From: Candidatus Magasanikbacteria bacterium UBA922
GTDB lineage: Bacteria; Patescibacteriota; Patescibacteriia; Magasanikbacterales; UBA922
Reading direction: 5' to 3'
DNA: 64,000 nt
Assembly: GCA_002293825.1 (NCBI GenBank)
Contig: DBDW01000001.1
Location: 3,314 to 67,313 of the forward strand
The translations under genes and the position numbers were made by a program. How positions within the stretch are numbered: the stretch's first letter is position 1; each line of letters begins with the position of its first letter. Shown here in pieces: positions 24,468 through 59,235 of this stretch. The notes under the pieces are model-generated. The model was not told the DNA's origin. It worked only from the letters and a program-made list of their open reading frames with translations, and did not search any database.

Positions 24468-27400
24468 TTATACGCTCTCCCCCGCAAACAACTCAGCCTG
24501 TTTCAATACGGTATCAGTTGCAATTTCTTGCGCATCCGGTGGATAGCCATATTGATTGAGCAAACGCTTAACCATAATACGCATACGCGCACGGGCTGAT
24601 TCTCTTAGACTCCAATCAATTGATGCATTTTCTCGCACGCGTTGTACCAAAATTCGGGCCAGTTCTCTCAAGGTATCGTCACCAAGTACTTTTCCCGCAC
24701 TTTCATTCATTACCAAAGCATCATAGAATGCAATCTCATCTTCAGTCAATCCTAGATTTTCTCCACGCTTATCAGCTTCTTGTACTTCATGCGCGAGCTT
24801 GATCAACTCATCGATTACTTGCGCTGCAGTTAATAAATTATTTTGGTATTTCTTGATTGCCGCATGAAGTATTTCTGAAAACTTTTTGCTCTGTACCGCA
24901 TTCTTTTTTCCTCGTGTTCTGATTTCATCATTTAATATTTTCTTGAGTAATTCAAGCGCAATATTTTGTCGTTTCATGCCGCGAATTTCTTCCAAGAATT
25001 CTTCTGAAAGAATAGAAATATCTGGTTTTTTGATTCCGGCAGCATCAAAAATATCAATCACCCCTTCCGACACCACTGCTTTGTCTACGATTTGTCGGAT
25101 CGTAGTCTCAATATCCATATCTTTTCCTCCCCCATCGCTCGCCAGTTTGGTAAGTCGTGCTTTGACTGCTTGGAAAAAGGCTACTTCATCTCGAATTTCA
25201 ACTGCTCTCAAATTTGGCATCGCAAGCGCAAATAATTTTCCGAGCGCATTCACTTCTGTGACAAATCGTTCTTTGTGATCTAGATTCCCAAGCAAAAAAT
25301 CTTCTACTTCAAGAATCGCAACTAATTTTTGTTTTGCTGTGCCGGTAAAATATTTTGAATAGTCTACATCGTGTAAAATTCCCTGCACAATTTCATATTT
25401 AGCAAGCATGTGCGGCACGGTATCCACTGTCTGATCGGCAATCATACCACCCGTTCCACCACTCTCAGTATAAACAGCAAGCGCTTCCTTGAGATCACTT
25501 GCAATGCCGATATAGTCGACAATGAGACCACCTGGTTTATCCTTAAATACTCGATTCACACGAGCAATCGTCTGCATGAGATTGGCTCCCTGCATAGGCT
25601 TATCAATATACATGGTATGAAGGCAGGGCACATCAAATCCCGTAAGCCACATGTCGCGCACAATCACGAGTTTCAATGGATCTTTAGTATCCTTGAATCT
25701 GGTCGCCAGATCTTTTCGATCTTCTTTGGTGGTATGATGCGGTTGCCAATCGGTCGGATCGGATGAAGATGTAGTCATGACGACTTTAAGTGCCCCCTGT
25801 TTCTTGTCATCACTATGCCATTCTGGTTTTAGTTTTATAATCTCTCGGTAGAGCTCGACTGCAATACGACGACTCATGGCCACAATCATTGCTTTTCCTT
25901 CGAATACTTCTTGTCGTGCTTCAAAATGCGCGACCAGATCACGCGCAATGTCTTGCAATCGTGCATGGTGTCCCACAATTGCCTCAAGCTGTGCCCATTT
26001 TGCTTTCGCTTTTTCGCTCACGGTTGATTCTTCACTTTCGAGTACGGCATCGACTGCACGATCAAGTTCTGCTTTTTTGTTTTCATCAAATCCAATTTTT
26101 ACCAATCGTGATTCGTAACTGATAGGAACCGTCGCCCCATCCACGACTGCTGCCTGGATATCGTAGACATCAACATAATTACCAAAGACTGCGCGAGTAT
26201 TGGCATCATTTTTTTCAATCGGAGTGCCAGTGAACCCGATAAACGACGCATGAGGTAGTGCATCTCGCAGATATTTTGCAAATCCATACGTAGTCTCTGC
26301 ACCCGTTTCAGTTGTTTTCACTTTTGCCCGTAATCCATATTGACTTCGGTGTGCTTCATCGGCCATGACAATAATATTTTCTCGATCCGAGAGTTTGCCA
26401 TACTCAGTCTCCCCTTCAGCCAGTGAAAATTTCTGAATGGTGGTAAATATAATGCCTCCACCTGATGTTGCTAATAGTTTTTTCAAATGTTCACGATTTT
26501 CTGCCTGGACCGGCTCCTGACGCAAGAGTTCGGTCGCTCCGGCGAAGGTATCAAATAATTGTTGATCAAGGTCGTTTCGATCCGTAATCACCACAATTGT
26601 CGGATTATTGAGTCTCTGCACAATCTTTCCTGCATAGAAAACCATGGATAATGATTTTCCTGATCCTTGCGTATGCCATACCACTCCAGCCTTCCGATCA
26701 CCTCGCGTTGCACTCAGTGTAGAATCGAGTGCTTTTTCTACCGCAAAATATTGATGATAGGCTGCAACTTTCTTGATCGTGCGAGTATAGGGCAACCCTG
26801 CATCATCAAATTTTCGTTCTTGTTCGTAGACCGTAAAATTTCGAACGAGATCAAGCAATCGCTCAGGCGTAAGCATTCCCAGTACTAATGTTTCAATCTC
26901 TGGCACCGTACGTTTCTCATCACGTGCTCCATCAATCGATTTCCACGCGAGGAATCGATCAAATCCGCTTGTGATCGTACCCATACGGGCGTCGAGACCG
27001 TCTGAGATGACGAGGATTCCATTGTACGCAAATAAATCAGGAATTGCTGATTGGTAATTGGTAAGCTGAGTAAATGCTTTGTGCACCGTCGCCTCTTCAT
27101 TCTTCGCATCTTTGAGTTCAATCACGACGAGTGGTAATCCGTTTACAAAGAGTACTACATCAGGAATTTTGTCTCGTTCCAGTCCCTTGATATAGAATTG
27201 ATTAGTTGCAAGCACATCATTATGTGACACCTGCTCCCAATCAATCACCCGCACTTCCCGTCCGCGCATATGTCCCTCTTCAAGAATTTCTACGGTTACT
27301 CCTTCTACGAGCAGGCGATGTACCGCACGATTATTTTCTACGATATTGTCGGTCTGGGTAGCAGTATGAATAATCTGATTCACTGCAAAGTTTCTCGCTT

Positions 27401-27575
27401 CTTCGGGGATATCAGGATTGAGCCGAGCGATTGCAGTGACCAGTCGATCACGAAGTATTACCTGCGAGAGATCCGGTCGCTCGGGTTCGAGTGCCTCGGG
27501 ACTGAGGTATGAAAAACCTGCTTCGCGGAGAAGGTCGAGGGTGAGTTGTTCGATTGAGGATTCGTTGAGGGTCAT
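24468..27575 (-). CDS. hsdR: Type I restriction enzyme R subunit
   Basis: 1035 aa with SF2 helicase motifs (TGSGKS, DEAHRSQ) and N-terminal nuclease region. Confidence 0.95.
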
Positions 27576-28889: not shown

Positions 28890-30125
28890 TTACTTAAAAA
28901 TTTTGTTTAATATTTTATCTCTTAATTTTGACAAAGTTTGAATTTCAAAAAAATTTAGTTTTATCTTTCCAAATTGAGAAGAGACAGTATTACTAAATAA
29001 ATTAAGAATATCACTGTTTGGTATATTGATTTCAATATTTGAAAAAACGCCTGTATTTACATTTAGAGTTGCAGAACCTCCACCGCCGATCATTTGCAAA
29101 TCACTACTCATTGATTTCAATACAAAATACAAATATTGTAAAATATGTTCATCTTTAGGAATAATTGAATTTATTTGCTGATTTGTTTGAGAAGCTTCTG
29201 TGGTTATGGAAACTAAACCAACGGTTGCAATACAACTTACACAAATCGAATTTTCTGGCACATATTTATTTCTTTGTGTATCTGCACCAGATAGAGTCAA
29301 TGAATCTTCTGTTTTAACTATAAACATTTGACCATGCATGTCTGGAATTTTAATAAATGGAACTTGTCCTCCAAAAAATTCTTGATTTGATTTTGACGGA
29401 GTTTTGCCGCAGACAATATCTCCGATATCCCCCAACTTCCCAACCCTCCATCCCTCCGGAATCATCCCAAGCTCAGAATCAACCATCTTCCCTGTCGCAC
29501 CTGGAAATCTGAAATCCACAAACCATTCTTTGAAGAGTGTCTGTGCGATACTTTCGAGTGTATTATTTTCTTTTCGCAGCAGCTCGATCTTGTCGTCGAG
29601 ACTTCCGAGGATTGCGGCGATTTCGCGTTGTTCGGAGAGAGGTGGAAGTAAAAATTCATAGTCTCCAATTTTTGTAGGTGACGTATGCTTAACAGTACTG
29701 CCCGTTGCAGAATTCACAATAGACTTCTGATAATCTCTTGTTCTCATCAGATAGTAAATGAAATCTTTAGATACTTCATCTTCATTAACTTCTACAAGAC
29801 CAACTCGTTGATTATGCAAAAATATTTTATCACTTTTATCTGGTATTAATGCGGGGAAACCTAAGGTATCACCCTCCTTACTCAAATCTGTCATTGTTAC
29901 CACCAAATCCCCCGCCTTTAAGACGTATTCATCAGGAATTGGCCCATCATAGTACTTTTTGCCATCCTTCCAGCCTCCCCCAATCAAAAAATTACCTGGT
30001 GTAAGTAGAATATTTTTTGTCTCCTTAGTTGAAAAATATTCACCTTTAAAAGCAAAACCATGTTTTATACTGACTATGTCACCAAGCTTTATTGTTTTCC
30101 AATTTTTTGATGAGGTGAGGGGCAT
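28890..30125 (-). CDS. hsdS: Type I restriction-modification specificity subunit (two target-recognition domains)
   Basis: 411 aa with duplicated TRD architecture and conserved central and C-terminal spacer helices. Confidence 0.9.
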   Translation of the reverse strand: MPLTSSKNWKTIKLGDIVSIKHGFAFKGEYFSTKETKNILLTPGNFLIGGGWKDGKKYYDGPIPDEYVLKAGDLVVTMTDLSKEGDTLGFPALIPDKSDKIFLHNQRVGLVEVNEDEVSKDFIYYLMRTRDYQKSIVNSATGSTVKHTSPTKIGDYEFLLPPLSEQREIAAILGSLDDKIELLRKENNTLESIAQTLFKEWFVDFRFPGATGKMVDSELGMIPEGWRVGKLGDIGDIVCGKTPSKSNQEFFGGQVPFIKIPDMHGQMFIVKTEDSLTLSGADTQRNKYVPENSICVSCIATVGLVSITTEASQTNQQINSIIPKDEHILQYLYFVLKSMSSDLQMIGGGGSATLNVNTGVFSNIEINIPNSDILNLFSNTVSSQFGKIKLNFFEIQTLSKLRDKILNKIFK

Positions 30126-30977: not shown

Positions 30978-32168
30978 CTAATTATTTTTATTAAGCGATT
31001 GTGGAATAAACCCATTTTTCTCAAGTGATGTAATCACACTTCGTAATAGATAATTATTATTGAATCCAATCGTATAAATACGACCATTCTCATTGATTGA
31101 TTGAAGCATTTTTTTATCCAACAATTTTCTAATAATGCGCGATCGTTGCACTGAAGATTCCTGACCAATCACCTTCTCAAGATCTGCAGATTTAATCGTC
31201 ATTTTCTTGGAACGAATGACTGCTTTCAGAATTTCATACTCTCGGTCCGTGATCATCTTCTTTTCTAGTGCGTCAGTAATAGATGGGAGGAGGATTTTCT
31301 CGACCACATAGTGTATATTCAATAATCGATCAATTTTTTCTATTTCATCTTTTAATCCTCCAAGCACATACTCACACCACGCAAGCACATGCTCTGTTTT
31401 TCCTGTATCAGCGAGTGCCAGCATGTCATAATATTTTTGGCGATCCATACAGAATATAGCGGTCGGATTGAGAATCCGCCCCGCCTTTACTTGAAAATTT
31501 TGTTTGATAAGCATTGCATAGGTAAACATGCGTACCATACGACCGTTTCCATTATCAAATGGATGTACCCAGGTCATGCGATGATGAGCAAGTGCGGTGA
31601 CCAATAAATCATTCTGCAAATCTACCGGAGTATTCACAAATCCTAGTAATTCTTCGAGATATGTCGGTACTTGTATAGGATCAGGAAGTACTACAGTAGC
31701 ACCCTTAATTGAAACAGGTGTCTTTCGCAATTGACCTGGATATTTTGAACCCTCACCATCTGGGGGAGGTGTAAGCCCATCCACAATAATTTTATGAATT
31801 TCTGAAAGATGTGCTCGGGTAATTTTTGTACCATTTTTTATTTGTGCGTCAATAAATTCGATCGCGCGATCAATATTAAAAATTTCCCGTAGTTTTTCTT
31901 CGGTAGTATCTTTAGGCACTTGATCAATAATTTTTTCTACAAATTCAGCAAGCGTAGTTCGATTTCCCTCAATACGCACTGAACCCAAACTTTCCATCCA
32001 CTGAAAAATTTCTTTGAGTTGAAAAAAGATATATGGAGGTACCGCACCACCTAATCTCTTAACCCGTAACTTTTCTAGCTCAACAATAATGCGCGCTAAA
32101 TTCGACCCCCAACTAGGTTCAGGAAGTATCAAAGGGATATCTATAAATGTAACATTTTCATTTGACAT
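30978..32168 (-). CDS. Fic/DOC family protein (AMPylase-type), embedded in the type I R-M locus
   Basis: HPFDNGNGRMVR Fic motif; 396 aa. Confidence 0.9.
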   Translation of the reverse strand: MSNENVTFIDIPLILPEPSWGSNLARIIVELEKLRVKRLGGAVPPYIFFQLKEIFQWMESLGSVRIEGNRTTLAEFVEKIIDQVPKDTTEEKLREIFNIDRAIEFIDAQIKNGTKITRAHLSEIHKIIVDGLTPPPDGEGSKYPGQLRKTPVSIKGATVVLPDPIQVPTYLEELLGFVNTPVDLQNDLLVTALAHHRMTWVHPFDNGNGRMVRMFTYAMLIKQNFQVKAGRILNPTAIFCMDRQKYYDMLALADTGKTEHVLAWCEYVLGGLKDEIEKIDRLLNIHYVVEKILLPSITDALEKKMITDREYEILKAVIRSKKMTIKSADLEKVIGQESSVQRSRIIRKLLDKKMLQSINENGRIYTIGFNNNYLLRSVITSLEKNGFIPQSLNKNN

Positions 32169-32291
32169 AATTTAACACCAATACTTGATAAAATAGCTCT
32201 ATGTAGCTATTTTTTAGCTGAATTTACTATAGCATTATTTATCAAATTATGCAAGAGGTTATTTAACATCAATACATCATTACTACTATCT

Positions 32292-32509
32292 AATGGCAAC
32301 ATTTTTCTTTAATTTGTTGCCATTTAACCAGAGAAGTCAACAAAATTTTACCTTATTTTAGCCAAAATTTTGCATCTTAGTTAAGTATTGATGTGACACT
32401 TAACCAAAAGTAATTTTTATTGCTTAATCTAGCTAAATTTAATCTTCAATGGCAACAATATCGCCTATTTTGTTGACCTTACTCACCTCAGTGGCAACAA
32501 AACTATAAA
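32292..32509. repeat. Cluster of (A/T)ATGGCAACA motifs: three direct copies (about 32292, 32448, 32491) plus one inverted copy (32316-32325) forming a palindrome, inside a 550 bp AT-rich noncoding region
   Basis: Motifs read from sequence; additional hairpins at 32193-32215 and 32380-32404. Confidence 0.5.
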
Positions 32510-32686
32510 ATATCTCATTGTAGCCACATTTTTTGCCTGATAGTTAAAGTCTTTACCTATTGATCAGCAGAGGAGAAAAACTATCCTTTTTTACAAAATG
32601 TGGATAACATCAGTAATTATTGACTTTTTAAGATTTTTTATGTATAGTGTATATACATTTGGCGTCCCACATACGTGGGAAGCTCC

Positions 32687-32718
32687 GCTCCTCGCTCCGG
32701 CGAGGAGCTGTTTTTTTA
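32687..32718 (+). terminator. Strong + strand rho-independent terminator (GCTCCTCGC-TCCG-GCGAGGAGC then T7) with no + strand ORF upstream
   Basis: Perfect 9 bp GC-rich stem and T7; overlaps the stop codon of the convergent mazF-like gene. Confidence 0.65.
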
Positions 32719-33130
32719 TTCAAACTGTTTCCGAAATTCAGTTCGCACACTCATGAATTGTTCACTATCGAGCTTTGATTTTTTGCGCAATAACCGTTTC
32801 GCGCTAATTACCCTTCCTTGAGAAATATTGACACTTCTCACCTCTTCATCAATCACCACATGCATCTGATACCACGGTTTTTCTTCTTTTATCTTCGTAC
32901 TTGTCGGCAAAACAAAGCACATATCTCTCGAATATTTTTTGAGAATCAGCACTGGTCGTTCAAACAAATCATTTTTACCATCCACCTCATATCCAATATT
33001 TTTTTCCCAATGCCGCCCACCATATCTCACGCTCTTCAAAATATACTTCTCTTTTCTCTTGATTCAGATGATGACGAATCTTCTTTTTTGTCCATGCGAC
33101 AAATTTTTCACCCACCTCATACGGAGTCAT
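32716..33130 (-). pseudogene. MazF/PemK-family endoribonuclease toxin gene interrupted by a +1 frameshift in an A7 homopolymer (plus-strand T7 at 32999-33005)
   Basis: The upstream frame encodes ...REVYFEEREIWWAALGK, then a stop. The downstream frame continues NIGYEVDGKNDLFERPVLIL...MCFVLPTSTK.... Removing one A gives a continuous 137 aa MazF-like protein. Confidence 0.6.
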
Positions 33131-33152
33131 ACCTGTAGTAAATAGTAAAAAA

Positions 33153-34697
33153 CTATATCTCAATACCCACTTTTTTCAACTGTTTTTTGATCTCCTCATT
33201 AAGCCTTCCCTCTTCCTCGATCTGCCCTTTGAGCTCTACCGCAAGCTTCCCCATTTTTTCCTCAAACGGAATTCCATCATCAATCGCATCAGTAATCCCA
33301 ACATAGCGACCCGGAGTGAGTACATAATTGTGCTTTTGTACGTCTGCAAGTGTTGCAGATTTAGTGAATCCTTTTTTGTCTTCATACTTCCCATCCTTCG
33401 TTCTCCATTCGTGATAGACACCTGCCACCATTTCTATATCCTCATCACTAAATTCTCGATGCGTACGATCTGCCATGAATCCTACATCTGATGCATCGAT
33501 AAATAATATCTCACCCGTACGTTTCCGATCACCATTTCCGACACGTTTTCGCGAAATAAACCAAATACATGCAGGAATACCAGTGTTGTAGAATAATTGT
33601 TTTGGAAGCATGACAATACAATCGACCAGATCCGCATCTACGAGCGCTTTTCGTATCTCACCCTCACCACTTGATTGTGACGAGAGCGATCCATTTGCAA
33701 GCACACACGCCATTACTCCATGTGGCGAGAGATGGTAAATCATATGCTGAAGCCACGCAAAATTTGCATTGCCTGCCGGAGGCTTGCCATATTGCCAGCG
33801 CGGATCATTCTGTAATAATTCCGCACTCCAGTCTGAAACGTTGAATGGCGGATTTGCCAAGATATAGTCTGCTTTGAGATCCTTGTGTGCATCATTGAGA
33901 AATGATCCTTCAGTATTCCATTTGATTCCACTTCCATCAATGCCACGGATTGCCAAATTCATGCGCGCGAGGCGATACGTGGTCTGATTACTTTCCTGTC
34001 CATAGACTGCCAGATCATCAATTCTCCCCGCATGAGATTTCACAAATTTTTCTGACATGATAAACATTCCCCCACTTCCACAGCATGGATCATAGATGCG
34101 TCCTTTGTAGGGCTCAATCATTTGTACCATCAACTTTACAATTGATTTTGGTGTATAGAATTGACCACCTTTTTTTCCTTCAGCATTAGCAAATTCTCCG
34201 AGGAAATATTCATAGACGCGACCCAATAAATCTTTTGATTTTGCTTCTTCATCTCCGAGTGCAATATTGCCAATAAGATCAATCAATCCTCCGAGTGAGC
34301 CTTTATCAAGATTTGGCCGAGCAAATACTTTGGGCAAAATTCCTTTGAGTTCTGGATTGAGTTTTTCTATTGCTTCCATGGCGCGATCGAGATCTTCTCC
34401 AATCGTCGGCAATTTTGACCGACTATGCAGAAATGACCAGCGTGCTTCTGCTGGCACATAAAACACATGTTCTGCTCGGTATTCATCTATGTCTTCTGGA
34501 TTTGCACCTGTTCCTTTTTCTTTTTCTAGTGTCAGTTTAGCATGAAGTTCTTCAAATGAATCAGAAATATACTTGAGAAATACCAATCCAAGCGCGACAT
34601 TTTTGTATTCTGCTGCATCAATGTTTTTGCGGAGTTTATCCGCTGCTTTAAACAACGTTTTTTCGAAATTTTCTACTGGTTTTTTTTGTTGAGCCAT
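33153..34697 (-). CDS. hsdM: Type I restriction-modification methyltransferase subunit
   Basis: N6-adenine MTase motifs: LANPPFN (NPPF), DPCCGSGGM (motif I). Start at MAQQKK. Confidence 0.95.
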
Positions 34698-34788
34698 AAT
34701 AAAAAATAGTACTCTCATAGTAGCACCCTGCAGTATATGCGTCAATTTATTCTACTTACCTAAAATCCGCATATTTCAGCTGATTTTC

Positions 34789-36486: not shown

Positions 36487-36646
36487 GACTCACTCCCTCC
36501 GTGAATAGTGACTCGAATGTGTGAAAAATATCACATACCGATAGTATTTTGTCAAGAAAAAACAGGATACAATACTTGACTTTTGAACACAATTACTCTA
36601 GGCTCATTCATGTACGAGTACGGTACTCCAGCCGGAGGGACGTTCT

Positions 36647-36877
36647 ATGAATGTAGGTTCATTTATCTGCAGAATGAGTGGCATATTGTGCATCCTCCCT
36701 GCCATAATCGGAATTCCTCTCACCTTCTATTACGAATCCGGAAGCTCGGAATACGAACACGGTTATCCCTGTCTAGTGATCGCTTTCTTTCTCTCAGCCA
36801 TCTGTCTCATCGCAGGCAGACTAGAAGAAGCTACACAAGAAGAATCAGAAGCTCACCACAAACAAGACGATGGATAA
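36647..36877 (+). CDS. Hypothetical small membrane protein (76 aa, two TM helices)
   Basis: Two hydrophobic segments; followed by a strong terminator. Confidence 0.4.
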   Translation: MNVGSFICRMSGILCILPAIIGIPLTFYYESGSSEYEHGYPCLVIAFFLSAICLIAGRLEEATQEESEAHHKQDDG

Positions 36878-36935
36878 ACACCACTACCCACTCGTGCCCC
36901 TGTAGACACTCGCGCTACAGGGATTCACGATTATA

Positions 36936-36975
36936 CAAAAAACCCTGTACCGTTCTGGTACAGGGTTTTGTGTTT
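36936..36975 (+). terminator. Rho-independent terminator (CCCTGTACC-GTTCT-GGTACAGGG then TTTTGTGTTT); its T-tract overlaps the 3' end of rnpB on the opposite strand
   Basis: Perfect 9 bp stem read from sequence. Confidence 0.6.
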
Positions 36976-37377
36976 CACACGATTCCTATAAGCCGAATTT
37001 TGTTCCCAGCTTGCGCCGGGTGATAATCATTTATCTTGTCCTACTATTACTAGCAGGATCATACACGAACTAACTTTTCGAATCCCGAAATGGGGAAACG
37101 CTGTTCTTTCTCCAGGTAGGGTTTACCGCCATACTGTCTTGCGACAGATGTAGTGTGGTAGCATTGATACGGCGCATATGCTGAACCTATCAATACCTCC
37201 ACACTCTTTTCACCTTTCCCCTGAATCACGAGGATTCAGAGTAGTATTGTCTCTGTGGCACTGTCCCGCATACGATCTCGCGACCGCATGGATGGATGTT
37301 ATCCACTACCCGTGTTCTTGACATAATATCAAGAGGAGTTCGGACTTTCCTCCCGTAGGGGCGATTATCCAGAATCG
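36971..37377 (-). ncRNA. rnpB: RNase P RNA (bacterial type A)
   Basis: 14 bp P1 helix between GTTTCACACGATTC (5') and GAATCGTGTGAAAC (3'). GGGAGGAAAGTCCGAACTCC matches the P4 5' strand. CAGTGCCACAGAGACAATAC matches the conserved P10/11 region. Also GGTGAAAAGAGTG, GGCGGTAAACCC, and ACAAAATTCGGCTTAT matching the P4 3' strand. Confidence 0.85.
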
Positions 37378-37462
37378 TGTGAAACAGGAGAAGGATAGCA
37401 CACGAATGCGTAGTTGTCAATCGATACAGTCCAAAAAAATTGAGAAATAAAAAATCTATGTT

Positions 37463-50632: not shown

Positions 50633-52210
50633 TTAAACCAACGGTCGTCCTGTCATCTCAGGCGGTTGTTCGATGCCAAGAATCGAGAGTATGGTCGGTG
50701 CTACATCTGCCAAAATTCCCACCGGATGCATCAGACTCAAATCTCCCTCAGGAGGATCTCCGGTAGGACCTGCTTTTCCACGAAATTGTTCTCCAATAAT
50801 AAGGAATGGTACCGGATTATTACTATGCTCTTTATCTCGTTCTCCGGTTTTCAGATTGACCACCTCTTCTGCATTTCCATGATCAGCAGTAATCAATAAT
50901 ACTCCACCCTTCGCTTTCACATATTCAGCAATTTTCCCAAGTCCTTTATCCACGGCTTCACACCCCTTGATCGTAGCATTGCGATCACCGGTATGACCTA
51001 CCATATCTGCATTTGCAAAATTAAGAAGAATCACATCATATCGATCAGATTCAATCGCTTCGATTGTCTTCTTGGTAATTTCATGTGCAGACATTTCAGG
51101 TACTTTATCATACGAAGACACATTGGGAGACGGAATTATGGCACGTTCTTCACCTTCAAATGGATCTTCGACAGTGCCATTCAGAAAAAAAGTGATATGT
51201 GCATATTTTTCAGTTTCTGCAATATGGAATTGTGTAAGACCAGCCTTACTCAAAACCTCTGCAAGACAATTGTGTACCACAATTGGTGGATATGCTACTA
51301 CGACCGGAATTTCTTTTTCGTATTCAGTCATCGTCACAAATAACAAATCTTTTACATAGTCCCGTTTGAATTTATCAAAACCTGGTAATACAAAAGCTTT
51401 AGTCAATTGGCGTGCACGATCTGGACGAAAATTAAAAAAAATAACACCATCTCCAGATTCGATACGTGTAGTAGGCTTACCCTCTTTCCCTAGTACAACA
51501 GGAATAAATTCTTCATCGTACACTTGTTTTTCATACGAGGCTTCGACTGCTTCAAGTGGACGTTTGAAATACGATTCAGCCACACCCTCGACCATTGCAC
51601 GATACGCTCGCTCAACACGATCCCATCGATTATCACGATCCATTGCATAATATCTACCAGAAATAGACGCGATTTCCCCTACTCCAATTTTTTCCATTTT
51701 TTCCTGAAGCTTTGATACAAAATCTTTACCTGAATTATACAATGTATCTCGACCATCAAGAATAACGTGAACAAAGACTTTTTTAATCTTATTTCTCTTT
51801 GCAAATTCAAGTAAGGTATACAAATGATCCTGACTGGCATGCACATTACCTGGACTCAAAAGACCAATCAGATGTAGCGCTGATTTACGAGCATGTACAT
51901 GATCACGCACCTGAAGAAATGCTTTATTTTGAAAAAAAGTTCCATCAACAATTGTCTTATTGATTCGAGGAAAGGTCTGATAATATACCCGACCCGCACC
52001 GATATTGAGATGCCCCACTTCTGAATTCCCCATTTCTCCATATGATAATCCAACTTCATTTCCAGAAGCATATAAAGACATTGCCGGATATTCATGGATA
52101 AATTGATCAATATGCGGTGTCTCAGCATGATAAATTGCATTACCATCACTCGGAGGTGCAATTCCCCATCCATCAAGGATCGCAAGTACTACAGGTTTTG
52201 GGCGATTCAT
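50633..52210 (-). CDS. gpmI: 2,3-bisphosphoglycerate-independent phosphoglycerate mutase
   Basis: MNRPKPVVLAILDGWG N-terminus and metal-binding motifs. Start set at the internal Met. Confidence 0.9.
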   Translation of the reverse strand: MNRPKPVVLAILDGWGIAPPSDGNAIYHAETPHIDQFIHEYPAMSLYASGNEVGLSYGEMGNSEVGHLNIGAGRVYYQTFPRINKTIVDGTFFQNKAFLQVRDHVHARKSALHLIGLLSPGNVHASQDHLYTLLEFAKRNKIKKVFVHVILDGRDTLYNSGKDFVSKLQEKMEKIGVGEIASISGRYYAMDRDNRWDRVERAYRAMVEGVAESYFKRPLEAVEASYEKQVYDEEFIPVVLGKEGKPTTRIESGDGVIFFNFRPDRARQLTKAFVLPGFDKFKRDYVKDLLFVTMTEYEKEIPVVVAYPPIVVHNCLAEVLSKAGLTQFHIAETEKYAHITFFLNGTVEDPFEGEERAIIPSPNVSSYDKVPEMSAHEITKKTIEAIESDRYDVILLNFANADMVGHTGDRNATIKGCEAVDKGLGKIAEYVKAKGGVLLITADHGNAEEVVNLKTGERDKEHSNNPVPFLIIGEQFRGKAGPTGDPPEGDLSLMHPVGILADVAPTILSILGIEQPPEMTGRPLV

Positions 52211-52221
52211 AAAAGCAGAGA

Positions 52222-53802
52222 TCAAAATAGTGATTTTCCCGTCATCTCACGAGGCGGTGTTCCACCAATCATCTTGATAATAGTAGGTGCCACATCAGCA
52301 AGTATTCCATCTTTCAATTTTATTCCCTTCGTATTATTCCGAATCAAAATACATGGTACTGGATTGAGACTATGCTCAGTATCCACTTCACCCGTCTTCA
52401 TATTCTTCATCTCTTCAGCGTTTCCATGATCCGCAACAATCAATACCTGCCCATCACGTCGAAGGGTTTCAGACACCACATCTCTCACACATTCATCAAT
52501 CGTTGCGACCGCACGTTGAGCAGCTTTGAAATTTTGCGTATGCCCAATCATATCTGCATTTGCATAATTAATGCAATAAAATTCATAGGCATCTTTTTTC
52601 ATACATCCCAACACTCTTTTGGTAATCTCGTGAGCAGCCATCTGTGGCTCATCATCATGATGCACCACCGTCTTTGATTCGACCTTCAGCCGATCTTCCC
52701 CATTCACAGGATCAGCGTATCCGCCATTAATAAAATATGTGACATGTGCATATTTTTCAGACTCGGCGATATACAGTTGTGTCAAATGAGAAAGTGCCAA
52801 AGGGAGTGTATTGTGTACATCTGGAGACGGAAATGCAGTCAAAATTTTTTCCAAATCAGGGCCAAAATCTGTCAAAGCAACAAATCGAATATTTTTTGGA
52901 ATTTTCCCTCGTCTAAATGCTCCGGGATTTTTCTTATTAAAATCTTCCTGCACAAATGCCTTAGTAATCTGCCGAGCACGATCTGATCGTGCGTTAAAAA
53001 ACATAATTACATCATGATCGTTCACCGTACCTACCGGTTTTCCCGTACCATCCACCACGACCGTAGGCGTAATAAATTCATCAGTCTCTCCTCGATTATA
53101 TGCCTGCTCAATCGCTTCTTCTGCACTTCCGACCAGATGACCCTTACCCATAGCCAGCGCCTCATACGCCTCTCTCGTACGATCCCAATTTTTATTTCGA
53201 TCCATGCCATAGAGACGTCCCATTATCGTAGCGATTTTTTCAGTATGCAACATATGACCACGAAGCTCGTGTAAGTACGTCATAGCTGCATGCGGACCTG
53301 AATCACGACCATCAGTAAACAAGTGTAGGTACACCTCGCCCATTCCCTCTCTACGACACAGCTCGAGTAATGCATACAAATGCTCTGGATACGAATGTGC
53401 TGAATTACCATCAGTCAACAAACCCATAAGATGTACTGCTGATTTGTATTTTTTTGCATGAAATAATGCTTGCTTAAATGCCTCATTTTTGAAAAATGTT
53501 CCATCATGAATCGTGTCTGAAATAGAAACAAGATCCTGTTTTACAATACGCCCAGCTCCAATATTCAAATGTCCTGCCTCTGAATTACCTCGCTGACCAG
53601 GAAAAAGTCCTACATACTCTCCATGCGTCTTCAATTTTGAAGTAGGATATTTTTCCATATACTCAAAAATGTTTGGCGCAGTGTCAGGAGTAATGGCATT
53701 ACCTTGATTTTTCAACGGTGCAAGTCCAAATCCATCGAGAATAATGAGGATCGTTGGTGAATGTCCACTAGTTGATTGAATTTTTATTTTTTTTGAAGAC
53801 AT
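52222..53802 (-). CDS. Second, diverged iPGM paralog in tandem
   Basis: PTILIILDGFG...GNSEAGHLNIGAGR and full-length iPGM architecture; 11 nt upstream of gpmI. Confidence 0.85.
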   Translation of the reverse strand: MSSKKIKIQSTSGHSPTILIILDGFGLAPLKNQGNAITPDTAPNIFEYMEKYPTSKLKTHGEYVGLFPGQRGNSEAGHLNIGAGRIVKQDLVSISDTIHDGTFFKNEAFKQALFHAKKYKSAVHLMGLLTDGNSAHSYPEHLYALLELCRREGMGEVYLHLFTDGRDSGPHAAMTYLHELRGHMLHTEKIATIMGRLYGMDRNKNWDRTREAYEALAMGKGHLVGSAEEAIEQAYNRGETDEFITPTVVVDGTGKPVGTVNDHDVIMFFNARSDRARQITKAFVQEDFNKKNPGAFRRGKIPKNIRFVALTDFGPDLEKILTAFPSPDVHNTLPLALSHLTQLYIAESEKYAHVTYFINGGYADPVNGEDRLKVESKTVVHHDDEPQMAAHEITKRVLGCMKKDAYEFYCINYANADMIGHTQNFKAAQRAVATIDECVRDVVSETLRRDGQVLIVADHGNAEEMKNMKTGEVDTEHSLNPVPCILIRNNTKGIKLKDGILADVAPTIIKMIGGTPPREMTGKSLF

Positions 53803-53895
53803 AACACATGTGTAAGCACGATAGACAACATAATGAATAGTGGCACAGTTGAGAATACTCACCCTCCGCAAACCATGATTCTCACACTTTCACAC

Positions 53896-58719: not shown

Positions 58720-59235
58720 CTATTTTCTACTCGACACTTGTTCCATCTTTTTCGAAGCTGCACACGTGAGTGCAATAGCAAGCGCATCTGCAGCATCATC
58801 CGGACTAATTTTTTTTTTGATTCCCAAAAGCATTTTTACCATAGTTTCAAGCTGAGTTTTATCAGCCCTTCCATATCCGGTAATGCTCTGTTTTACCTCG
58901 AGTGGTGTATATTCATGTACCGCGAGCCTAGCTTTGGTAAGCGTTAGAAGAATAACCCCCCTCGCCTGTCCCACTTTGATCGCAGTTGTTACATTTTTAT
59001 AAAAAAATAATTCTTCAACTGCTGCACAATTGGGTTTGTGCGTCCGTATAATTCTGATCAGTTCATCTGAAATATCTTCAAGACGCTCGACAAATGAGCG
59101 CTTAGTATCTGTTTCAATGCACCCGTAGTCAACGAGCGTATAGCGATCTCCCACACAATCAATAATACCAAAACCAACCCGACCAAAGCCGGGGTCAACG
59201 CCGAGAATACGTGTGTTTATTTGAGAATTTATCAT
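58720..59235 (-). CDS. ruvC: Crossover junction endodeoxyribonuclease RuvC
   Basis: ILGVDPGFGRVGFGI; catalytic acidic residues. Confidence 0.88.
   Translation of the reverse strand: MINSQINTRILGVDPGFGRVGFGIIDCVGDRYTLVDYGCIETDTKRSFVERLEDISDELIRIIRTHKPNCAAVEELFFYKNVTTAIKVGQARGVILLTLTKARLAVHEYTPLEVKQSITGYGRADKTQLETMVKMLLGIKKKISPDDAADALAIALTCAASKKMEQVSSRK

Follow-up and report, generated by a model that had tools for sequence, protein, structure and literature searches.

A split MazF-family toxin gene in Candidatus Magasanikbacteria and the convergent small RNA that is probably its antitoxin

Introduction

What holds a MazF-type toxin in check when no antitoxin gene lies beside it? The question is raised by a stretch of 64,000 nucleotides (nt) from the genome of Candidatus Magasanikbacteria bacterium UBA922 (contig DBDW01000001.1, positions 3,314 to 67,313; the whole stretch is called the window here). 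In it, a gene for an endoribonuclease of the PemK/MazF family is embedded in a type I restriction-modification (R-M) gene cluster and is split in two by a frameshift in a run of seven A (A7). Most likely the toxin gene was inactivated not long ago, an ordinary event taken alone. As for the absent antitoxin, its place is probably taken by a small RNA not described before, the gene of which converges with the toxin gene and is conserved across a clade of MazF proteins in Patescibacteria.

"Solo" genes make up more than half of the large toxin families, and it has been speculated that small RNAs serve as stand-in antitoxins (PMC2701414). A precisely placed, covarying small RNA gene is the sole conserved neighbour of the MazF clade studied here, which belongs to uncultured Patescibacteria. 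If our interpretation is true, it would be a concrete answer to how at least some of the "solo" MazF toxins are controlled.

Results

Removal of one A restores a PemK/MazF-family protein

The reading frame that starts with the ATG at 33130 on the minus strand encodes MTPYEVGEKFVAWTKKKIRHHLNQEKREVYFEEREIWWAALGKKYWI. Its product begins with MTPYEV and ends with EIWWAALGKKYWI; the TGA stop codon (32987-32989) follows three codons past the A7. The +1 frame encodes NIGYEVDGKNDLFERPVLILKKYSRDMCFVLPTSTK and is open up to a TAA at 32716-32718. Both frames had been described in this way in a first-pass annotation of the DNA, which also proposed that deletion of one A gives a continuous protein of 137 amino acids (aa). 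This proposal was borne out: removal of one A from the A7 resulted in an uninterrupted open reading frame (ORF) of 137 aa, and three homologues that are intact at 137-141 aa are 83, 70 and 71% identical to the repaired protein over the full length. Direct reading of the window sequence gave a length of exactly seven for the run. The shift needed is +1, as annotated; a -1 shift at the A7 leads to a dead end of 66 aa. As it stands, the gene in the window has no intact reading frame but consists of a stub of 47 aa and an out-of-frame remainder. By itself the frameshift is a routine annotation point, namely that two small ORFs belong together as one disrupted PemK/MazF gene.

The repaired protein matched the Pfam family PemK_toxin (PF02452) with 40.8 bits (cut-off 23.1) over profile positions 3-109 of 109; neither NCBIfam nor PADLOC had a model matching it. 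In a profile search of the PDB, MazF (EndoA) from Bacillus subtilis was found with E = 7e-6 (4mdx/1ne8). In this alignment R58, which is invariant in the family, is paired with the Arg of the EndoA segment RPVLV, and P75-T76-S77-T78 with the I-T-A segment that holds T48. We take R25 and T48 to be the catalytic residues of B. subtilis MazF. The motifs ERPVLIL and MCxVxPxT, on which the first-pass annotation had based its assignment, contain the residues aligned to this catalytic Arg and Thr.

An AlphaFold2 model of the repaired toxin (predicted local distance difference test 84.6, predicted template modelling score 0.74) shows an N-terminal helix of 20 residues and, after it, the MazF barrel. 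The top 50 Foldseek matches in the PDB were all toxins of the MazF type (MazF, YdcE/PemK or MoxT), with a probability of 1.00 and target-normalised template modelling scores of 0.61-0.78. Pfam match, fold model and PDB alignment all agree with the MazF/PemK assignment. By family and fold, the repaired protein is a PemK/MazF toxin with predicted endoribonuclease activity. Judged from the model, neither of the two fragments is able to form the MazF fold; the position of the frameshift lies in the flexible loop between beta1 and beta2. The modelled N-terminal helix, which is basic and carries the invariant residues W13 and K17, appears specific to this family and has no counterpart in classical MazF.

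The family is large. Among 5.8 billion proteins searched, 295 relatives were obtained. Nearly all of those listed are intact, with about 127-149 aa, and those with a named source came from Magasanikbacteria and other Patescibacteria. Hundreds of intact Patescibacteria homologues (116-161 aa) are collinear with the repaired protein. When 1.84 billion cluster representatives (fifty-percent clusters) were searched with a profile, 246 matches were obtained at E <= 1e-30 and 1804 at E <= 1e-10, and among 185,579 species genomes (one genome per species) the family was found at at least 556 loci, spread over many Patescibacteria lineages. W13, K17, W37, G42, N44, G46, E48, G51, K52, R58, P75, Q104 and R112 are invariant in an alignment of 39 sequences. 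The repaired junction exactly restores the most conserved motif of the family, G42-x-N44-x-G46-x-E48.

A small RNA gene adjoins the toxin gene across the family

No obvious protein antitoxin had been noticed at the locus. This observation holds for the window and for the family as a whole, but a small RNA gene on the other strand had been overlooked. The DNA past the stop codon of the toxin gene is conserved above neutral expectation between the window and L001, the locus of the homologue with 83% identity. The same element was seen in L019 and L049, two relatives with C-terminally truncated toxins, in the order hairpin, CGGAGCT, hairpin, CCAAATG, -10-like box, -35-like box. Read in the direction of the RNA, it consists of a 5' end ACAUUU, a first hairpin, a CC linker, a G+C-rich hairpin and a U7 tract.

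A first covariance model was built from five copies and searched against 870 kb on both strands (E <= 10). It gave 58 matches, about 54 of which lay at the 3' end of a toxin gene and opposite to the toxin strand. A second model, built from 29 matches, gave 80 matches in 845 kb at E <= 1. A model match abuts the toxin stop codon in 70 of the 97 family genes that have room downstream. In 43 loci the distance to the stop codon is exactly the same, with the U-tract of the terminator directly after the complement of the stop codon. Inspection by eye of 18 loci without a match revealed recognisable variants in most of them. The metagenome loci L093-L099, which harbour the most distant toxins (34-47% identity), have an RNA variant of different wording, ACAAAUUCCC-loop-GGGACAAUAC (GGGACAA...), again followed by a terminator. 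It would appear from this that the subtypes of RNA and protein diverge together. The copy in the window obtained the highest scores of all copies with both models (101 and 87.5 bits), has an intact promoter and folds into the proposed structure with z = -6.0.

Covariation was measured over 29-73 loci. Paired cells amounted to 88.8% compared to 67.2% after shuffling, and the covariation score was 0.482, which none of 500 shuffled alignments reached, compared to 0.182; controls in which the pairing partners were slid scored at most 0.126. Compensatory changes were present in 13 of 15 pairs. Of 876 cells, 814 were canonical when read on the strand opposite to the toxin and 711 when read on the toxin strand. 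G.U exceeded A.C by 113 to 10, which fixes the strand of the RNA. The loop of the first hairpin is UUCG in 23 and GNRA in 16 of 73 loci. In 73 loci a -35 box and an (extended) -10 box (T96 A99 T77 A63 N T97 %) precede the RNA at a constant spacing. The window and L001 share 88.5% identity in the transcribed part, despite a dS of about 1.9 in the toxin gene, and the two segments ACAWWU (5' end) and GCUCCG are conserved from Magasanikbacteria as far as Saccharibacteria, with stems that covary. Promoter, terminator, compensatory changes and strand-specific G.U pairs are thus all found, as for a structured small RNA gene; the transcript is a prediction from sequence.

These results show the following: the gene pair is conserved across the protein family, with a covarying RNA of fixed strand and no conserved protein partner; and the pair of toxin and RNA moves as a unit between unrelated genomic contexts.

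Searches in existing collections did not return the element. With Rfam 15 at gathering thresholds, the RNase P RNA was the only match in the whole window; at the toxin locus only sub-threshold noise was seen at E <= 10 (e. g. istR with 17.9 bits at a threshold of 45). A scan of phages in IMG/VR gave 45 exact pattern matches, none of which was confirmed by the covariance model. In a literature search we found no description of this RNA or of its pairing with a MazF-family toxin.

Three further observations concern the RNA region. A small ORF on the toxin strand inside it was considered and rejected, as it is not conserved across the loci compared. The perfect nonamer TTATCCACA, which resembles a DnaA box and lies upstream of the -35 box, occurs in five loci only (window, L001, L017, L019 and L049), four of which are linked to hsdM; it may be the site of a regulator of the RNA promoter. 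The shortened members in L019 (3097-3447, 116 aa) and L049 (2069-2425, 118 aa), each with the RNA gene next to it, may be further decayed toxin copies that retain the RNA gene.

No conserved protein partner was found

ORFs were called in 80 species-representative loci, and two neighbours per side were clustered for the 76 loci in which the toxin ORF was found. Among ORFs of at least 45 aa, to which the survey was limited, no conserved protein family was present beside the toxin gene. The genes upstream vary in size and orientation, and many are separated from the toxin start by only -8 to 12 nt. Those sampled were housekeeping genes (LigA, UvrB, ComM, an ABC permease, a cysteine desulfurase). 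In the window there is no ORF between hsdM and the toxin ATG, and no partner of the MazE/PemI, AbrB or ribbon-helix-helix type. Only few matches were obtained by tblastn with HsdM, HsdS, HsdR and Fic of the window and the neighbours in L003. Tandem repeats in the style of type III antitoxins were not detected by TRF in 32000-33300.

One could assume an ordinary type II MazF with a protein antitoxin that is encoded elsewhere or escapes detection by its small size or divergence; the RNA next to it would then have nothing to do with the control of the toxin. Toxin genes without a partner are frequent, their regulation in trans has been suggested (PMC2701414), and antitoxins below 45 aa would have escaped the survey. 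Against this, 76 loci had no conserved neighbour, the narrow gaps upstream leave no space in many of them, and a register of RNA and stop codon that is exact in 43 loci is difficult to account for unless the two genes are functionally linked. We therefore regard this explanation as very improbable.

A small gene for an RF-1-domain protein (ArfB-like peptidyl-tRNA hydrolase) lies at L003 6521-6922, L005 1137-1538 and L006 4427-4831. These genes are adjacent or close to the homologues P0002 and P0003, and such a neighbour would be suggestive for a toxin that cuts mRNA. As a partner it was rejected, because it did not recur in the survey of 80 loci.

The frameshift is probably recent and genuine

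The aligned sequence is GG-AAAAAA-T in L001, L002 and L006 and GGG-AAAAA-T in L003. With A6 or A5 in the homologues, the window has one extra A. Among 92 relatives compared at the tract, A6 was present in 3 and A7 in none, whereas 83 had runs of at most four. In the loci retrieved, every family gene that was examined forms a single ORF without a frameshift here; those in L031, L032, L058 and L074 are continuous as well. Between the repaired gene of the window and its syntenic counterpart in L001, dN/dS was 0.055, at a dS (about 1.9) that is saturated. With L003 as outgroup, each of the two has 9 private amino-acid changes, and those of the window are all conservative. By these measures the gene in the window has not decayed since the break.

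Three explanations had been offered in the first-pass annotation: a decaying pseudogene, an assembly error, or expression controlled by slippage. We consider it likely, from the comparison of sequences, that a recent and genuine insertion from A6 to A7 has inactivated the gene; an assembly error and slippage we rate as unlikely for the following reasons.

If the additional A were an artefact of sequencing or assembly, the real genome would have A6 and the toxin gene would be intact and functional. A single base in a homopolymer is the commonest class of error, and the lack of decay in the remainder of the gene would be in line with an intact gene. However, the same truncated products are found in four assemblies. 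The three contigs that were read (JGI 3300005689, JGI 3300014773 and an ENA SPAdes contig at 48x, ERZ761600) all have A7 with the same split, and the lengths of the contigs differ among the assemblies. What weakens this argument is that, over about 6 kb, their DNA matches that of the window with 100% identity; they might stem from one population or share one set of reads, and a systematic homopolymer error would then be possible. An independent copy was not obtained from metagenome contigs either: a scan for the exact pattern, with A6 to A8 allowed, had no match, the source contig included, and a protein-based scan gave no relative closer than 71%. Of the 77 homopolymer runs in the window (at least 7 for A/T, at least 6 for G/C), 62 lie within intact ORFs (at least 120 aa), among them eleven 8-mers and one 10-mer in frame, and the A7 alone interrupts a coding frame. 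A systematic homopolymer error should have broken some of these runs. An artefact is thus unlikely.

Alternatively, expression could be controlled by slippage or be phase-variable, in that a minority of transcripts, ribosomes or cells regains the frame and little toxin is made. In principle lysine codons in an A7 make a slippery sequence, the frame is regained once a single A is lost, and for a potent toxin little expression suffices; moreover, R-M loci in other bacteria are often phase-variable. Yet neither the slippery tract nor the layout in two frames is conserved among the 92 relatives, all of which are single ORFs, and every assembly read has A7. The shift required is +1, but the in-frame heptamer A_AAA_AAA favours -1 and with it the dead end mentioned above. 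Seven residues are also fewer than in tracts that give efficient transcriptional slippage or phase variation. Regulation of this kind is therefore improbable. A better candidate for slippage than the A7 is the longest run of the window, a T10 on the plus strand (A10 in coding sense, 58809-58818), which is in frame within an ORF of 171 aa (58720-59235, minus strand).

Genomic setting

Table 1. Features of the toxin locus and the surrounding type I R-M cluster (positions in the window)
Feature	Position	Strand	Remarks
Split gene for PemK/MazF-family endoribonuclease	32716..33130	-	137 aa once one A is removed
A7 homopolymer	32999..33005	-	T7 on plus strand; +1 insertion site at codons 43/44
ORF of N-terminal fragment	32987..33130	-	47 aa and stop; only N-terminal helix and strand beta-1
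ORF of C-terminal fragment, as given by gene callers	32716..33039	-	107 aa; out-of-frame TTG start; without beta-1
Candidate small RNA	32655..32717	+	about 63 nt; convergent with toxin gene
First hairpin of small RNA	32661-32684	+
Conserved GCUCCG	32682-32687	+	hairpin base and linker
Terminator hairpin	32687-32708	+
U7	32711-32717	+	overlaps toxin stop codon by 2 nt
Promoter of small RNA	32620..32648	+	TTGACT, 17 nt, TATAGT; 10/12 matches; inferred start about 32655
TGTGGATAA (TTATCCACA on minus strand)	32599..32607	+	DnaA-box-like; upstream of -35 box of small RNA
Promoter-like site in hsdM end, upstream of toxin start	33152..33179	-	TTGAAA, 16 nt, TATAGT; consensus match only
hsdM, type I methyltransferase (N6_Mtase, HsdM_N)	33153..34745	-	stop 22 nt before toxin ATG
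Fic-domain protein, SoFic-like	30978..32168	-	396 aa; next gene downstream; Fic E = 3.6e-16, PADLOC SoFic E = 2.9e-38
hsdS	28890-30125	-
Coiled-coil protein, 435 aa	27577-28884	-
hsdR	24468-27575	-

The window is chromosomal, with 41.8% G+C and the genes for EF-G, RpoC, ValRS, ArgRS, UvrD and RNase P RNA. Its EF-G shares 93-94% identity with proteins annotated as Candidatus Magasanikbacteria. The first-pass annotation was right in placing the toxin gene within a type I R-M gene cluster and in the distance given to the end of hsdM (Table 1). On the minus strand, hsdM comes after a META-domain gene and is itself followed by the split toxin gene; beyond a gap of about 550 nt lie the Fic gene, two small ORFs, hsdS, the coiled-coil gene and hsdR, in this order. 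In L001 the intact homologue (P0001, 83% identity, 137 aa) likewise comes right after hsdM and precedes a pair of helix-turn-helix and Fic genes. The upstream gene is hsdM in four loci only (window, L001, L017 and L049) and hsdS in one (L043). All other family genes are found in unrelated contexts, and only about 5 of about 97 (about 5%) being linked to hsd genes indicates that the module is self-contained and not an accessory of R-M systems.

The match of the Fic protein to the SoFic model, within a type I R-M cluster, marks the cluster as a composite defence island. The same protein has a weak AbiEi-like winged-helix match in residues 306-380. The coiled-coil protein, an unusual extra in an hsd operon, gave weak matches only (SMC-like JetC/LmuB models and intermediate-filament profiles).

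Between the small RNA gene and the Fic gene (32292-32500) there are four copies of TGGCAACA/TGTTGCCA, compared to four in the remaining 63.8 kb; among them is a perfect palindrome pair of 10 nt, AATGGCAACA-13 nt-TGTTGCCATT, at 32292-32324. The TGGCAACA/TGTTGCCA copies are probably operator sites for the downstream Fic, hsdS and hsdR genes. A non-coding block of 170 nt (32376-32544) is 82% identical to L001 (2138-2305) and absent from all other loci. The spacer of 345 nt at 32376-32720 folds with a z of about -4.8 on either strand.

Elsewhere in the window, two paralogous genes for cofactor-independent phosphoglycerate mutase (iPGM_N and Metalloenzyme domains) lie in tandem at 50633-52225 and 52222-53871 on the minus strand, with an overlap of 4 nt. 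The RNase P RNA is of the bacterial class A (36973-37380, minus strand, 156 bits); the mechanically called ORFs 36583-37023 (plus strand) and 37226-37420 (minus strand) overlap it and are probably spurious.

Discussion

Possible function of the RNA

Our interpretation is that the two genes form a module, inserted in the window between hsdM and the Fic, hsdS and hsdR genes of a type I R-M defence cluster, in which a MazF-family toxin is accompanied by a convergent RNA antitoxin. On the sequence data this is probably so, as is the corollary that here the toxin is dead and the RNA intact. For the role of the RNA taken by itself, as antitoxin or as regulator of the RNase, the sequences argue at least as well, and we hold it to be a probable one. 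More tentatively, the Patescibacteria MazF clade as a whole might be an undescribed class of toxin-antitoxin systems in which the RNase is checked by a single-copy convergent RNA of about 60 nt and no MazE is involved.

Two routes of action can be envisaged. In the first, which would be type I-like, the RNA pairs with the complementary 3' untranslated region of the toxin mRNA and causes its decay, or the two transcription units interfere or collide. On the toxin strand there is no U-tract after the shared hairpin, and hence the toxin mRNA should continue into the RNA gene and contain a sequence exactly complementary to it. In the second route, which would be type III-like, the RNA binds the RNase as a pseudo-substrate via the single-stranded segments ACAWWU at its 5' end and GCUCCG. 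Cis-antisense pairing does not need a conserved sequence, yet both segments are kept, a sign that a conserved partner recognises them. This partner could most obviously be the RNase itself, perhaps by means of its basic N-terminal helix with W13 and K17. ACA is the core of many MazF recognition sites. The two routes are compatible with each other, and neither is favoured by the data.

As to the window, the recent slip from A6 to A7 would have left the 47-aa stub and a C-terminal part that cannot be translated, with the break in the most conserved motif of the family. The RNA gene and its promoter would have stayed intact while the toxin was lost. Loss of the toxin first fits the order of loss that is expected of, and tolerated by, a toxin-antitoxin pair.

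Apart from the identity of the assemblies discussed above, several points weigh against our interpretation. That the RNA is expressed, that the protein is toxic and that the one acts as antitoxin to the other are inferences from sequence. The alignments used for covariation derive from the covariance models; they were fitted to the modelled structure and lean towards it, and the E-values are rough. The promoter was judged by a sigma-70-type consensus, whereas promoter rules in Patescibacteria are not established. Pairing of the RNA in trans with the toxin mRNA was, according to RNAduplex, no better than with shuffled sequences (mean z = -0.2); the best sites cluster loosely at the EIWW codons, which is a weak lead. 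An anti-Shine-Dalgarno function of GCUCCG was rejected, as the toxin leaders are AT-rich and without a conserved GGAGC. Finally, most members of the family lie among housekeeping genes, so that a non-toxic role in RNA processing is possible.

The last point leads to another explanation, in which the RNA is real but no antitoxin. The protein would then be a non-toxic processing or binding partner of the RNA in a ribonucleoprotein, or the RNA would merely insulate or terminate convergent transcription. The location of most family genes outside defence islands and the additional basic helix, foreign to classical MazF, could be explained in this way. But the catalytic Arg and Thr/Ser of MazF are retained; the variable position and patchy distribution of the family (at least 556 of 185,579 species genomes) are typical of mobile toxin modules; and several copies are inserted in type I R-M clusters. 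A terminator alone would not keep a promoter, the 5' tail and GCUCCG, and loss of the protein with retention of the RNA suits a toxin-antitoxin pair. On balance an RNA without antitoxin function seems rather unlikely, though more probable than the other alternatives considered above, and we continue to favour an antitoxin.

If the RNA does neutralise the RNase, RNA antitoxins would be extended to the best-studied family of protein toxins, a compact pair of RNase and RNA inhibitor would be available for experiments, and a defined family of non-coding RNAs would be added to a lineage with almost none known. The strain of the window would be a natural "toxin-dead, RNA-alive" allele and as such a useful control.

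Comparison with known systems

With the type II systems MazEF and PemIK (Kid-Kis) the module shares the Pfam family and the fold of the toxin, and the catalytic Arg and Thr/Ser align with those of EndoA. In contrast to these systems, no gene for MazE, PemI or any other conserved protein adjoins the toxin gene; what is conserved beside it is an RNA gene of the opposite strand. The toxin differs as well, by about 33 additional residues that comprise the N-terminal helix and by an insertion of five residues (DGKNxxF) before the catalytic Arg.

In type III systems (ToxIN, CptIN, TenpIN, AbiQ/antiQ) an endoribonuclease of the Kid/MazF-like class is combined with a non-coding RNA antitoxin. An RNase toxin with an RNA partner is what we find here too, and from their sequence the conserved single-stranded segments could serve as a pseudo-substrate. 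However, a type III antitoxin is encoded as a series of direct repeats in tandem, which precedes the toxin gene on the same strand and is set apart from it by a terminator, whereas the RNA described here is a single copy without tandem repeats, has its own promoter and lies downstream of the toxin gene in convergent orientation. Furthermore, the toxin is a PemK_toxin protein and not a member of the ToxN or AbiQ families.

The arrangement of the genes resembles that of type I systems with overlapping 3' ends, such as TxpA/RatA and BsrG/SR4 of B. subtilis, in which the genes converge and their 3' ends touch or overlap. Given such a layout, toxin mRNA extending past the stop codon would be perfectly complementary to the RNA. 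Albeit a soluble RNase of 137 aa with a MazF fold is quite different from a small hydrophobic peptide, type I toxins can be enzymes and not only membrane peptides, as SymE/SymR and RalR/RalA illustrate. A further difference is that the RNA keeps strict sequence motifs and stable tetraloops across distant species, which a purely cis-acting antisense RNA does not need.

Toxins embedded in R-M loci, such as PrrC among hsdM, hsdS and hsdR or Fic/Doc proteins in hsd clusters, resemble the situation in the window, where the toxin gene comes right after hsdM, before hsdS and hsdR, and next to a SoFic-like gene; L001, L017 and L049 repeat this linkage to hsdM, and in L043 the toxin gene follows hsdS. 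PrrC is under the control of the R-M proteins, but nothing points to such a control here.

Hence the module fits neither type II, nor type III as defined, nor classical type I. It may be a hybrid that combines the layout of a type I system with the RNA-protein logic of type III.

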